Positions 24,365 to 32,474 are shown, counted from the stretch's first letter. The stretch is 64,000 nucleotides of DNA from Ilumatobacteraceae bacterium (GCA_963825565.1 CAWGTW010000014.1:23408-87407), one strand, 5' to 3'. Made by a program: numbers and translations. Notes: generated by a model from the sequence alone, not told the origin.

Positions 24365-24826
24365 GTGACCGCGATGCCGCTGCGGCTGAGCGAACTCCTG
24401 GAACGGATCCGACCGGCGGGAACCCCCGGCGCGCCCGCCGAGGGTGAACAGGTGCGCCAGCGCAGCAACCGCGACCGCGAGCTCGTCGACGTGCTCGCGG
24501 TCGTGGCGTCGATCGAGCGCGAGGCCGCCGAGATCGTCGACGCCGCCGGAGCCGAGGCCGAGCGGATCCACCGCGACGCCGTGGAGCGGACCCGTATCAT
24601 CCGCGCCGGACGAGACGACCAGGTCGCGGCCGCCGGAGCCGAGGCGGCACAGCACGACGACGCGTTGGCCGATGTCGTGGGCGCCGCGATCGCCGACTCG
24701 GCTGCGCAGGAGCGAGACGAGCTGCGCTCCCGCGCCGACATCCTCATCCCCGACCTCGTGAGGCGGGCGACGGAGTCGATCTGGACCACGATCGTCCCCG
24801 AGGCGCGCATCGGGGGCCGGCGATGA
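24365..24826 (+). CDS. putative A/V-type ATPase peripheral-stalk subunit (H/G-like coiled-coil protein)
   Basis: 153 aa. Ala/Glu/Arg-rich helical sequence (VASIEREAAEIVDAAGAEAERIHRDAVERTR). It is the first gene of the operon and is ATGA-coupled to subunit C. The assignment rests on context. Confidence 0.45.
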   Translation: MTAMPLRLSELLERIRPAGTPGAPAEGEQVRQRSNRDRELVDVLAVVASIEREAAEIVDAAGAEAERIHRDAVERTRIIRAGRDDQVAAAGAEAAQHDDALADVVGAAIADSAAQERDELRSRADILIPDLVRRATESIWTTIVPEARIGGRR

Positions 24827-25746
24827 CCGCCGGCTGGGTCGCACCGGTGACGAGGGGACGAGCGATCCTCGGTCGTCTCGTCGGTGCCGACGGCGCGCGG
24901 ACGCTCGCCGAGATGAGTTCGTGGGACGAGGCACGTGCCGAACTGGGTCGCACGATGTACGCCACCGGCCTTCCTCCCGATGCCGGGCGGCAGGCCGCTG
25001 TCCGATCCGCGCACGCCTCGGCGATCTGGCAACTCCGGGTCCTGGCCGGCTGGATGCCTCCGGAGCACACGGTCCTGCCACGGCTGTTCGCCGCACCGTT
25101 CGAGATGAGGAACATCGAGCAACACCTCCGCTCGCTGCGCGATCACACCCCGACCGACCCGCTCCCCCTCGGCTCGCTCGCCGTCGCCTGGCCGGCTGTG
25201 TCCCGGACGAAGACCGTCGAGGAAGCCCGCCACGTGCTCGCCCGGACGGTGTGGGGCGATCCCGGTAGCACGGATCCGCCCGAGTTGGCGCTGGCGTTGC
25301 GCGTCGGGCTCGCCCGGCGCGCCGTCGCCCGCCTCCCCGTGGCGAAGGAGTGGGCGTGCGGAGCGGTGGCCGTGCTCGTCGCCCGGGAGCGGTTCGCGTT
25401 CTCCCGGCCGGTCGAGGACACGACCGCCGGAGTGGTGAGCCGCCTGGTCGGTCGTGCATGGGGCGGAGCCGTGTCGGTCACCGACCTCGCCGACCACCTC
25501 CCCCCACGGGCGGCGTGGCCACTCGCCGATGTCGACGACCCGCGCGATCTCTGGCGCGCCGAGCTCGCCGTCGCGGCGCGGGTCGCCGGCGATGCGCGCA
25601 CGCTCGCGGCGTCGAACCGATTCGACGTGCGCACTGCGGCGGCGATGATGGCACTGCTGCTCGTCGACCTCTGGCGCGTGCAGGCAGCGATCGAGCTCGC
25701 AGGACGGGGACCGATTCCCACCGAGGTGTTCGATGCCGTGGCGTGA
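24823..25746 (+). CDS. A/V-type ATP synthase subunit C (d-like)
   Basis: 307 aa and helical. Its size and position between the stalk and I subunits fit, and it overlaps both neighbours. The family call is mostly contextual. Confidence 0.55.
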   Translation: MTAGWVAPVTRGRAILGRLVGADGARTLAEMSSWDEARAELGRTMYATGLPPDAGRQAAVRSAHASAIWQLRVLAGWMPPEHTVLPRLFAAPFEMRNIEQHLRSLRDHTPTDPLPLGSLAVAWPAVSRTKTVEEARHVLARTVWGDPGSTDPPELALALRVGLARRAVARLPVAKEWACGAVAVLVARERFAFSRPVEDTTAGVVSRLVGRAWGGAVSVTDLADHLPPRAAWPLADVDDPRDLWRAELAVAARVAGDARTLAASNRFDVRTAAAMMALLLVDLWRVQAAIELAGRGPIPTEVFDAVA

Positions 25747-27085
25747 CGCGGTGACCCCGACCGAGATGTCTCGGGTGGCGGTGGTCGCGCCGCTGACGCT
25801 GGAGCGGCGCGTGCTCGTCGAGGTGGCCGACGCGGGCGTCGTCGAGCCCGACCCGACGGGCGGCGTCGCGCCGAATGGGGACGACGACGGCCCATCGCTG
25901 CTGACGGCAGACCCACCGGCCACGACGGAGGATCGCGCCGATCTGGCCCGCGGGGAGCGGTCGCTGCAGGCGGTGGCCGCCGACGCCCGCCGCACCGAGC
26001 GGTGCCTCATCGTCACCGGCTGGACGCCGGCCGACCAGGTCGAACCGCTCGCGACGCGCCTTGCACCGCTCGGTGGGGCGGTCGCCCGACTGCACCCGCG
26101 GCGCGGGGTCGAGCCGCCGACCGCGCACCAGGTCGGCGGCTCGACCGGCACGTTCCGCCCGCTCGTGACGACCTACGGGACGGTGCCCTACCGCGACATC
26201 GACCCGACCTGGTTCGCCGTCGTCGCTTACATGCTGATGTTCGGCATGATGTTCGGCGACGTCGGCCACGGGTTGATCCTGGTGGTGTTCGGGTGGGTGG
26301 CCCTGCGCACGTCCGGCCGGGTCGGCAGGTTGCGTCCGGTCGCGCCCTTCCTGATCGGCGCTGGGCTCGCCGCCGTCGGCTTCGGCTTGGTGTATGGCGA
26401 GGCCTTCGGCCCGACCGGGCTGGTCCCGACGCTGTGGATCAACCCGCTCGACGAACCCGAGACGCTGCTGCTGGCGGGGCTGGTGTTCGGGAGCTGCCTG
26501 CTGGCGATCACCTTCGTGATCGCCACGGTCGACCGATGGCGGGAGGGGGGTGCCAAGCTCGCCCTCTACTCGGCTTCCGGTCTCGGTGGAGCCCTGCTCT
26601 TCGCCGGCGGCATCGCGGCGGTCGTCGGCGTGCTCGTCGGCAACGCGTGGCTCCTGCCGATCGGCGTCGCCACCACCACGATCGGCTCCCTGCTGATCTT
26701 CGCCGGGTTCCTCGCGCGGGCCGGATCGGGCGGCTCGGCGATCGCCCAGGCGGTGGTCGAGATGTTCGACACCGTGCTGCGCATGGGGTCCAACCTCGTG
26801 TCGTTCACCAGGCTGGCGGCGTTCGGGTTGACCCATGCGGTCATCGCGCTCGTCGTGTGGGACGGCACGGCGGCGCTGTGGGAGCGCGGCGGGATCGTCG
26901 CCCGCTCCGCGGCGCTCGCGCTCTTCGTCGTGGGCAACGCCGTTGCGTTCGGGCTGGGCGGGCTGGTCGCCGGCATCCAAGCGCTTCGGCTCGAGTACTA
27001 CGAGATGTTCTCCCGGCTGTTCACGAGCGAGGGGCGCCCGTTCCACCCCTGGCACGTTCCGCTCGATCGATTGGAGGCTTCATGA
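25733..27085 (+). CDS. A/V-type ATP synthase subunit I (a-like membrane stator), short form
   Basis: 450 aa. [33 protein letters not shown] and a multi-TM C-terminal half with the conserved Arg region ([14 protein letters not shown]). The N-terminal soluble domain is only about 165 aa. Confidence 0.75.
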
Positions 27086-31462: not shown

Positions 31463-32070
31463 ACGGTCAGCACGGAAGCAGCCGGGCCGCTCGGCTCGAG
31501 CTGCGCGGCCGGCTCGACCTCGCCCGCCACGCCACCGAGCTCCTCCAGCTGAAAGAAGAGGCGCTCCGACGCGAACGCGTCCGGCTGGAGGGCCACGCGC
31601 TACGCACCGCGCAGCAATGGAGCGAGCGATGCGAGCGCGCGGGCACCTGGCTGGCTCGCTCGCGGGCGCTGGGGGCCGGAAACGAGCTCGCCGCCCTCGC
31701 CGACCGGCACACCCCGCTGGCCACCATCGACACGCACTGGCGCGACTCGATGGGTGTGGCGTACCCGGGCGAGGTCGTCGTCAACCACCCAGCGACCCCC
31801 TCGTTCACGACCACCGCCGCGCTCGCCCCGACCGCCGAGGCGTACCGGCACGCACTCGAGGCCGGAGCGCACCAAGCCGCGGCGTCCGCCGCACTCCAAC
31901 GCGTCACCGCCGAGCTGATGGCGACACGACGCCGACGCCGAGCGATCGAGCACCGCCTCCTGCCCCTCCTCGAGGAGCGGGTCAGCGTTCTCGAACTCCG
32001 CCTCGACGAGGACGACCGAGCCCAGGCGCTGCGGTCGCGCCTGGCGATACGATCGAGGAGCGGGCCATGA
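31459..32070 (+). CDS. A/V-type ATP synthase subunit D (central stalk)
   Basis: ATGA-coupled. 203 aa. N-terminus RLELRGRLDLARHATELLQLKEEALRRE and C-terminal helix RRRRAIEHRLLPLLEE. Confidence 0.8.
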   Translation: MNGQHGSSRAARLELRGRLDLARHATELLQLKEEALRRERVRLEGHALRTAQQWSERCERAGTWLARSRALGAGNELAALADRHTPLATIDTHWRDSMGVAYPGEVVVNHPATPSFTTTAALAPTAEAYRHALEAGAHQAAASAALQRVTAELMATRRRRRAIEHRLLPLLEERVSVLELRLDEDDRAQALRSRLAIRSRSGP

Positions 32071-32474
32071 TCGACCGCATCCTCGTCGCCGTCGACGACT
32101 CACCGACCGCCCTCGCTGCGGCCTCGATGGCGATCGATCTCGCCGCGACCCAGCACGCCCGACTTCACCTCGTCACCGTCACCGACGGCCAGCACGACGC
32201 GGCACGGGCGCTCCACCATGTCACCGCGCTGGCCCGCCGCGCCCACCTCGAGCCCCGGACGACGACGACCGAGGGTGGCCAGCCCTTCGAGGCGCTCCTG
32301 CGCGTTGCCGCCGACTGGGGTGCCGATCTCATCGTCATGGGCCGATCCAACCGCCGTCGCCCCGGCGCACCGTACGTCGGAACCCAGACCGAACACCTCC
32401 TCGAGTTCACCCACATCCCGGTCCTGATCGTCCCCGACCCGGCGTTGACGCCCGACCGCTCAGGTCACCGCTGA
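32067..32474 (+). CDS. universal stress protein (UspA family), last gene of the ATPase operon
   Basis: ATGA-coupled to subunit D. MIDRILVAVDDSPTALAA...ADLIVMGRSNRRRPGAPYVGTQTEHLLEFTHIPVLIV. Confidence 0.8.
   Translation: MIDRILVAVDDSPTALAAASMAIDLAATQHARLHLVTVTDGQHDAARALHHVTALARRAHLEPRTTTTEGGQPFEALLRVAADWGADLIVMGRSNRRRPGAPYVGTQTEHLLEFTHIPVLIVPDPALTPDRSGHR

Follow-up and report, generated by a model that had tools for sequence, protein, structure and literature searches.

The window analysed here, a stretch of 64,000 nucleotides from an Ilumatobacteraceae bacterium (GCA_963825565.1 CAWGTW010000014.1:23408-87407), contains at positions 24365-32474 an operon for a rotary ATPase of the archaeal/vacuolar (A/V) type. 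Ten open reading frames (ORFs) run head to tail on the plus strand, each open and in frame, without internal stop or frameshift. The start and stop codons proposed in an earlier reading of the sequence alone (the first-pass annotation) are those found by our ORF check, and its subunit calls (H/G-like, C, I, K, F, E, A, B, D, and usp for a universal stress protein, Usp) were each verified; the 'H/G-like' first gene is G-like, its clade profile matching G of Thermus thermophilus. All nine structural subunits are present and intact, so that the description of the operon as complete holds. The ten genes are as follows, with protein lengths in amino acids (aa).

24365..24826 (+): subunit G (archaeal H), peripheral-stalk coiled-coil partner of E; clade profile match to Thermus G
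24823..25746 (+): subunit C (eukaryotic d), rotor socket between the D/F shaft and the K ring; 307 aa, very divergent; assigned with AlphaFold2 (AF2) and Foldseek
25733..27085 (+): subunit I (a), membrane stator and ion channel; 450 aa; Pfam/NCBIfam V_ATPase_I
27082..27558 (+): subunit K (c), proteolipid; 158 aa; Pfam ATP-synt_C (PF00137) at residues 95-154
27566..27784 (+): subunit F, central-stalk accessory; 72 aa; Pfam PF01990 (E=2.8e-4)
27781..28347 (+): subunit E, peripheral stalk; 188 aa; weak Pfam PF01991
28317..30050 (+): catalytic subunit A; 577 aa, or 568 aa from GTG 28344
30047..31462 (+): non-catalytic subunit B; 471 aa; NCBIfam NF003235 at 578 bits against a cutoff of 349, and Pfam matches
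31459..32070 (+): subunit D, central rotor shaft; 203 aa; Pfam ATP-synt_D (PF01813) at residues 13-193 (E=5.4e-25)
32067..32474 (+): Usp-domain protein; 135 aa; Pfam Usp (E=3.2e-24)

Subunits A, B, D, I and K were recognised directly by Pfam and NCBIfam; G, C, F and E lie below the curated thresholds, and of these G, E and F were tested with clade profiles and C with a predicted structure. For comparison, a scan of one genome per species yielded 24 related loci (cited below by number, such as L023), which were compared by tblastn and ORF reconstruction. Subunit A scores 601 bits against the NCBIfam model of V-type ATP synthase subunit A (NF003220, cutoff 470), matches Pfam ATP-synt_ab, ATP-synt_ab_Xtn and ATP-synt_VA_C (PF00006, PF16886 and PF22919), and finds its best Protein Data Bank (PDB) matches in the A subunits of Pyrococcus horikoshii, T. 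thermophilus and Enterococcus hirae. Both catalytic motifs that had been reported as intact, the Walker A sequence GGFGEGKT and GERGNE, are indeed there, together with DSTSRWAEA and the non-homologous (bulge) region; among the best 120 homologues of A the Walker A sequence is GGFGEGKT in 94 and GGFGTGKT in 26. Subunit D matches the NCBIfam models of V-type D below their cutoffs. The profile of G, built from 17 clade members, matches G of the T. thermophilus V/A-ATPase (E=2e-6) and then yeast G and F-type b, and gene 1 also gives a weak NCBIfam match to the N-terminus of V-type E. The clade profile of E matches E of P. horikoshii (4.5e-11) and of T. thermophilus (6e-10).

The identity of C was settled by structure, because matches at the sequence level are weak. 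The window protein reaches only E=0.0058 against Pfam PF01992, a family matched by seven of 19 clade members (best 6.9e-8); its homologues at the Joint Genome Institute are mostly labelled 'hypothetical protein', with a precomputed PF01992 match in two of 120. A sequence profile of C run against PDB sequences returned spurious helical-repeat matches only, and alignment of that profile with the canonical C of locus L023 by hhalign was weak (probability 11%). The AF2 model, built on 37 homologues, has a mean predicted local distance difference test score (pLDDT) of 92.8 and a predicted template modelling score (pTM) of 0.90. Its best Foldseek matches in the PDB are the C/d subunits of T. thermophilus (8ywt_M and 1r5z_A), with template modelling (TM) scores of 0.61-0.63 and probability 1.0, and it also matches eukaryotic d with probability 1.0. 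Since C and G of the clade are routinely annotated as hypothetical, automated censuses may score such operons as incomplete.

Almost all of the genes overlap. ATGA overlaps occur at 24823, 27082, 30047, 31459 and 32067, a GTGA overlap at 27781, a 14-nt overlap at 25733 and a 31-nt overlap at 28317, and only K and F are separated, by a 7-nt gap; the overlaps agree exactly with the earlier list of junctions. Four-base overlaps are frequent in high-GC actinobacterial operons and so are not remarkable in themselves. However, the overlapping junctions are also kept in the related loci, as reconstructed from their ORFs, and thus are a maintained feature. Three starts deserve comment. Gene 1 may begin at GTG 24365 (153 aa) or at ATG 24374 (150 aa; MPLRLSELLER...), the latter being the more probable because the homologues begin there. 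The GTG start of A at 28317 is backed by a similar leader of 8-9 residues in its homologues (...AGxVxRVNGPVV), and GTG 28344, which would make a GTGA overlap, is a possible alternative; the start of I at 25733 is backed by the conserved N-terminus MPWRD. The G+C content at third codon positions (GC3) is 0.84-0.92 across all ten genes, like that of the neighbouring genes, and the G+C content of the operon genes is 0.70-0.75, compared with 0.69-0.73 in the surrounding window. The composition is therefore native, as had been supposed. A sigma-70 promoter scan over the operon gave no promoter-like site, such a scan being uninformative for a high-GC actinobacterium; a terminator scan over the same region gave one terminator-like site, no more than in shuffled sequences; and Rfam and tRNA scans of the window gave no match.

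Of the derived characters that the whole clade has in common and that the canonical relative L023 lacks, the most important lies in subunit I. About 190 residues are absent from the window protein when it is compared with canonical proteins of 620-680 aa, and its residues 88-440 match positions 273-637 of the 646 in the V_ATPase_I profile. The best 120 homologues of I are 346-502 aa long, nearly all of them 413-483 aa. In an exhaustive search of 1.8 billion representatives with the window protein, only the closest clusters (at least 42% identity) have lengths of 460-500 aa; more distant representatives are canonical (620-680 aa), and they align from about residue 255-290 onward with the query from about residue 70-90 onward. 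A few short proteins (445-480 aa) were also seen at lower similarity, and may be fragments or independent reductions. Residues 88-190 of the window protein align with 331-439 of yeast Vph1, and a further alignment with Vph1 709-822 includes the essential stator arginine, which is kept: the window motif aligns with the yeast sequence SYLRLWALSLAHA and is invariant in 33 homologues of I, apart from a change of T to A at the third residue in four.

In the N-terminal domain of a/I, the proximal lobe is formed by residues 14-53 and 331-406, the distal lobe by 183-256 and the connecting coiled coil by 107-152 and 267-330, and one E-G stalk stands at each lobe (PMC3470569). In the window protein only the equivalents of the proximal lobe (yeast 14-53 and 331-406) were found, instead of a two-lobed cytoplasmic domain. 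Positions 73-163 of an N-terminal clade profile align with Vph1 307-406, and positions 11-74 of the same profile align weakly with 13-73 of the I N-terminal domain of Meiothermus ruber; the two proximal-lobe segments are joined by a variable, disordered linker. In the AF2 model, which Foldseek matches to V-ATPase a and Thermus I, the N-terminal domain is a single small lobe of beta-alpha...alpha-beta-alpha-beta topology (residues 12-119, pLDDT >90) without a long helical hairpin. The alignments and the model together indicate that I keeps the proximal lobe and the membrane domain and is without the coiled coil and the distal lobe. With the distal lobe gone, a second E-G stalk would lack the place where it usually docks. 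Flanking synteny was found neither between the window and the related loci nor, among four reference loci, beyond L005, L024 and L010, which share it; hence no conserved flanking gene adjoins the operon that might make up in trans for what I has lost.

Subunits F, G and K are derived as well. F is 71-76 aa long in most clade members (72 aa in the window) and 80-92 aa at four loci, compared with about 100-112 aa in canonical enzymes and 112 aa at L023. Its clade profile matches the archaeal F structures 2i4r and 2qai and NtpG of E. hirae, and in the one alignment shown it covers residues 13-73 of the 102 in the 2i4r chain; judged by this alignment and by length, F lacks its C-terminal third, about 30 residues of canonical F. 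G carries about 35 residues in front of its coiled coil, which hold the most conserved element of the protein, LxELLERxRPxGxPG (LSELLERIRPAGxPG in the window), and this motif may dock on the remaining lobe of I. K is 140-160 aa long in the clade. In an alignment of 18 clade members its C-terminal hairpin (residues about 93-158) is almost invariant, and Glu141, the ion-binding carboxylate, is invariant. The N-terminal 90 aa or so are poorly conserved and comprise a transmembrane helix, an RRxPR loop, a second transmembrane helix, an AxA-like site and a linker rich in Ala, Thr and Pro; the two helices match no family in Pfam or NCBIfam, and the best NCBIfam match of K is to a 102-aa V-type K of the hairpin type. 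The idea that the extension is a separate upstream ORF was rejected, since in the 20 loci whose I-K junction is intact no stop codon interrupts the frame between the end of I and the K hairpin, and the two genes usually share an ATGA overlap. This derived architecture (short I, short F, extended K and, as described below, a conserved usp) was not picked up by the first-pass annotation, although its subunit calls stand.

Shortened subunits, and the position of C, F, E and G under the curated family thresholds, could be taken to mean that the operon is a decaying or non-functional remnant. However, the genes show a strong coding GC3 signal and no internal stops or frameshifts, the shortened forms recur at equal lengths in hundreds of homologues, the confident model of C folds as subunit d, and the residues of catalysis and of the ion path are intact. 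We therefore give decay almost no credence.

The ion specificity of the enzyme can be predicted from K. In Na+ enzymes the ligand set of K comprises Gln/Glu32, Ser/Thr66 and a polar residue at 67, in addition to the Glu and a Tyr (Mulkidjanian et al., PMC2359735). The window protein has Glu141 and Tyr146, but Val112, Gly142 and Val143 stand at the Na+-ligand positions, so that the full set is absent, and the replaced positions are invariantly non-polar across the clade. Because these three residues stand where Na+ enzymes need ligands, the enzyme is probably coupled to H+. A Na+-translocating V-type pump like Ntp of E. hirae, serving under salt or alkaline stress, would suit the estuarine and sediment metagenomes of the source runs, as well as the rule that coexisting rotary ATPases usually differ in ion specificity (PMC11738941). 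Against such a pump stand not only the missing ligands but also the form of K, in which ATP-synt_C matches the C-terminal hairpin alone; the functional unit is thus a single hairpin and not a duplicated proteolipid with four transmembrane helices of the NtpK type. We consider the Na+ pump improbable.

The 24 related loci come from Acidimicrobiales and Acidimicrobiia metagenome-assembled genomes (MAGs), a Nocardioides MAG, isolates of Demequina rhizosphaerae and D. zhanjiangensis, Kocuria, Cellulomonas, Solirubrobacterales and one member of the Chloroflexota. The order G-C-I-K-F-E-A-B-D, with a short I, was found in 21 of the 24, namely those that span most of the operon, and L006 shows the part from I to B likewise; the carriers fall in three classes of Actinomycetota (Acidimicrobiia, Actinomycetes and Thermoleophilia). 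The window operon does not have the canonical order (H/G)-I-K-E-C-F-A-B-D, in agreement with the remark that its order differs from the textbook ones. The canonical order is carried by the Chloroflexota locus L023 (Promineifilaceae), where A is only 44% identical and I-K-E-C-F-A-B-D encode an I of about 645 aa, a K of 72 aa without extension, an E of 214 aa, a C of 354 aa and an F of 112 aa, followed by A, B and D. K of L023 (7613-7831, +) has a Gln in helix 1 and P-E-T in helix 2, a Na+-type pattern unlike that of the actinobacterial clade. The non-canonical order thus appears to be a property of the whole actinobacterial lineage and not of the window genome alone.

The closest named relatives of A, I and C belong to Acidimicrobiia, Ilumatobacteraceae or Acidimicrobiales, which bears out the actinobacterial host proposed from the sequence; this host probably belongs to the Acidimicrobiia and comes from sediment or estuarine water. 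The proposal that an A/V-type operon is unusual in such a host was not borne out: the same operon is found in many relatives, and there are previous reports, cited below. If an actinobacterium with an F-type enzyme had recently acquired the operon by horizontal transfer, either from Archaea or from some distant bacterial phylum, this would be in keeping with the general attribution of bacterial A/V-type enzymes to ancient archaeal transfers (a statement quoted in PMC12451618), and with a genomic context that is not conserved between distant carriers of the cassette. However, the best 120 homologues of A are 58-74% identical to the window protein, and every named one among them (Acidimicrobiia, Acidimicrobiales, and Actinomycetia or Frankiaceae MAGs) belongs to Actinomycetota; the nearest non-actinobacterial locus found, L023, has 44% identity and the different, canonical architecture; the derived features are common to three actinobacterial classes; and G+C content and GC3 equal those of the surroundings. 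Nothing in our results points to a recent import from Archaea, and an import of either kind seems to us very improbable.

A tree of concatenated A and B was built by neighbour-joining from 1000 ungapped columns with 200 bootstraps, the trees containing 19-23 sequences. It groups the Acidimicrobiia including the window (79%), a Micrococcales-like set (100%) and the Solirubrobacterales (100%). The Nocardioides-like group (L005, L010 and L024; Actinomycetes) joins the Acidimicrobiia at 100%, apart from the Micrococcales-like group, which points to a transfer between classes. L005, L010 and L024 share flanking genes at 53-98% identity, and L010 bears the label Nocardioides sp., an indication that the two MAGs labelled 'Actinomycetota' (L005 and L024) are Nocardioidaceae. 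It had been stated at the outset that the operon would lose interest if close relatives shared it with a congruent phylogeny; this is essentially what we found, in that the tree follows class-level taxonomy, with one supported exception. In four of the loci (L008, L010, L013 and L022) A or B appears to be split across frames, in two or three tblastn pieces, or, at L010, part of a run-on ORF of 1036 aa; we suspect assembly indels in the MAGs rather than true pseudogenes.

We take this tree to mean that the cassette is an old resident of Actinomycetota, with some transfer between classes. Whether the cassette moves horizontally within Actinomycetota, so that the window copy need not be vertical in a lineage that is nonetheless native to the phylum, seems to us evenly balanced. 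The placement of the Nocardioides-like loci with 100% bootstrap, and the fact that flanking genes are common only to very close relatives, speak for such movement; the three main groups otherwise track class-level taxonomy, the transfer signal comes from neighbour-joining on 19-23 sequences, and many of the loci are MAGs, which may be imperfectly labelled or binned.

Of the 22 loci that extend past D, 18 have a Usp gene directly after it, mostly joined by a 4-nt overlap as in the window. Usp is a conserved tenth gene of the operon in the clade, and is likely to be a regulatory or accessory partner. At L016 (Solirubrobacterales) the gene after D (13839-14885, +) is not usp but encodes a release-factor-like protein of baeRF family 10 / Host_attach.

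The occurrence of an A/V-type ATPase in Actinomycetota is already known. A V-type enzyme, predicted to be Na+-dependent, is present without an F-type ATPase in the anaerobic actinobacterial UBA1414 ('Hakuba actinobacterium'; PMC7325909), and another has been reported in Melissospora conviva, of a genus of Micromonosporaceae (PMC12451618). In the ProAD census, 890 bacterial genera have one F-type and one A-type enzyme, and in 220 genera the two enzymes are both predicted to use H+ (PMC11738941). These three papers likewise concern A/V-type operons, with or without an F-type enzyme, but none of them describes the short-I, short-F, extended-K and Usp-linked architecture. A literature search for a short-I or single-stalk A/V enzyme, or for a link between Usp and an ATPase, returned nothing relevant; it covered few subscription journals and is weak evidence of absence. 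Within the searchable literature we thus found no description of the reduced stator, rearranged order and linked usp of this clade.

The subunit inventory (G/H, I, K(L), E, C, F, A, B and D) is equal to that of the T. thermophilus V/A enzyme (atpGILECFABD) and of the archaeal A1Ao enzyme (ahaHIKECFABD). The likeness extends to a single-hairpin proteolipid with one Glu, the bulge insert of A, the fold of C (TM 0.61-0.63), the matches of the G and E profiles to Thermus chains, and the best scores of A against A of P. horikoshii and Thermus. In contrast, the order in the window is G-C-I-K-F-E-A-B-D and theirs G-I-K-E-C-F-A-B-D; I has about 450 aa (theirs about 650) and is without the coiled coil and distal lobe; F has 72 aa (theirs about 100-110); and the window operon adds an N-terminal extension of about 35 aa to G, an extension of about 90 aa with two transmembrane helices to K, and a Usp gene coupled to D. 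Ntp of E. hirae (ntpFIKECGABDHJ) is likewise an A/V-type enzyme from a bacterium, and its subunits A, B, D, I, K, C, E, F and G have homologues here, but the window operon differs in its gene order, its short I, its K (without Na+ ligands and not a duplicated protein with four transmembrane helices) and its lack of NtpH and NtpJ genes. By analogy only, it recalls the N-ATPase, an atypical F-type operon that Burkholderia pseudomallei, for example, carries: an additional rotary ATPase that is laterally mobile, has an altered peripheral stalk and keeps its genes in a distinct order (PMC5706428). That enzyme coexists with a housekeeping F1Fo and is thought to be an ion-export pump under stress (PMC5706428); it is F-type, and its accessory subunits are not homologous to those of the window operon.

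We are confident that the operon specifies a working rotary A/V-type ATPase/ATP synthase, native to the chromosome and probably of the H+ type, which belongs to a distinct lineage of Actinomycetota. In such an enzyme, ATP hydrolysis or synthesis by A3B3 would be coupled through D, F and C to rotation of the K ring against the Arg of I. C would seat the D/F shaft on a ring of K hairpins, each with one Glu and without Na+ ligands, and E and G would hold the head to I by way of a pared-down stator, in which I offers its proximal lobe only and G has apparently gained a conserved N-terminal motif. A K of the hairpin type, as in Thermus and archaea, would provide one carboxylate per two helices and hence a high H+/ATP ratio, as is the case in A/V enzymes that synthesise ATP, and the enzyme should thus be reversible, making ATP as well as pumping. 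Most likely it would work alongside F1Fo as an additional enzyme, linked with stress or energy limitation by way of Usp, which is co-translated and might serve as a nucleotide-sensing regulator or as an accessory subunit. Pieces of contigs from an estuarine metatranscriptome are 99-100% identical to parts of I, of A and of the A/B junction.

The opposite role, as sole rotary ATPase and thus the main ATP synthase after loss of the F1Fo operon, would have parallels in the 7% of bacterial genera that carry a single A-type enzyme (PMC11738941) and in the anaerobic actinobacteria UBA1414, with a V-type and no F-type ATPase (PMC7325909). The hairpin-type K, too, suits synthesis. However, an accessory enzyme agrees better with the patchy distribution and with the Usp gene attached to the operon. 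Demequina, Kocuria, Cellulomonas and Nocardioides, moreover, are ordinary aerobic actinomycetes that normally have atpBEFHAGDC, which also counts against a sole enzyme. We therefore regard this role as unlikely.

In every A/V- or V-type rotary ATPase that has been solved, two or three peripheral stalks stand on a two-lobed a/I N-terminal domain, and F-type enzymes have one stalk. Since I is left with neither coiled coil nor distal lobe, we tentatively propose a minimised A/V ATPase with a stator unlike that of every solved A/V enzyme. Its head might be held by a single E-G stalk, as in F-type enzymes, or by two that are anchored anew through the G motif; the leader of K with its two transmembrane helices might be removed or lie outside the ring; and Usp might be a dedicated nucleotide-sensing regulatory subunit. 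Taken as a whole this scheme is possible rather than probable.

Several points weigh against these interpretations. The one lobe left in I could still offer docking for two stalks. The extension of K, if built into the ring, would halve the H+/ATP ratio and favour a pump. The canonical nucleotide-binding motif of Usp is G-x2-G-x9-G-S/T; as read from the translation, the window protein has an imperfect ATP-binding motif, G-x2-N-x9-G-T, in VMGRSNRRRPGAPYVGT. The metatranscriptome contigs have a depth of about 2-4 and could include DNA carry-over. Finally, that an F1Fo enzyme coexists with it is an assumption drawn from general knowledge and the ProAD statistics (PMC11738941).

Other genes of the window are listed here for completeness. 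Directly upstream of the operon and on the same strand lies an apparent cluster for a ribosomally synthesised and post-translationally modified peptide or another natural product (17683-24208, +), the first four genes below, which include two enzymes of S-adenosylmethionine (SAM) type; the last two genes lie downstream.

17683-19212 (+): cytochrome P450
19568-20461 (+): precursor-modification enzyme of the MbnB/TglH/ChrH family
21255-23225 (+): B12-binding radical SAM enzyme
23291-24208 (+): SAM methyltransferase
34508-35050 (+): F420H2-dependent quinone reductase family protein
35090-35572 (-): second, stand-alone Usp gene

The operon is followed by a malic enzyme gene (32460-33887, -) that is convergent with usp; the 3' ends of the two overlap by 15 nt (from the malic enzyme stop at 32460 to the end of usp at 32474), which leaves no room for a terminator between them. 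The F420-linked quinone reductase fits an actinobacterial host. Further downstream, 49130-54616 (+) is a very long ORF of about 1829 aa with a strong coding GC3 signal.

The number of stalks is a textbook difference between the families of rotary ATPases, and models of their evolution and of elastic power transmission make use of it. A widespread lineage without the distal lobe, with a short F and a re-ordered operon, would thus be a natural experiment on the minimal A/V stator. The Usp encoded in the cassette offers a testable link from stress or nucleotide signalling to a rotary ATPase, and since several carriers are non-pathogenic actinomycetes in culture (Demequina, Kocuria and Cellulomonas), these questions are open to laboratory work.

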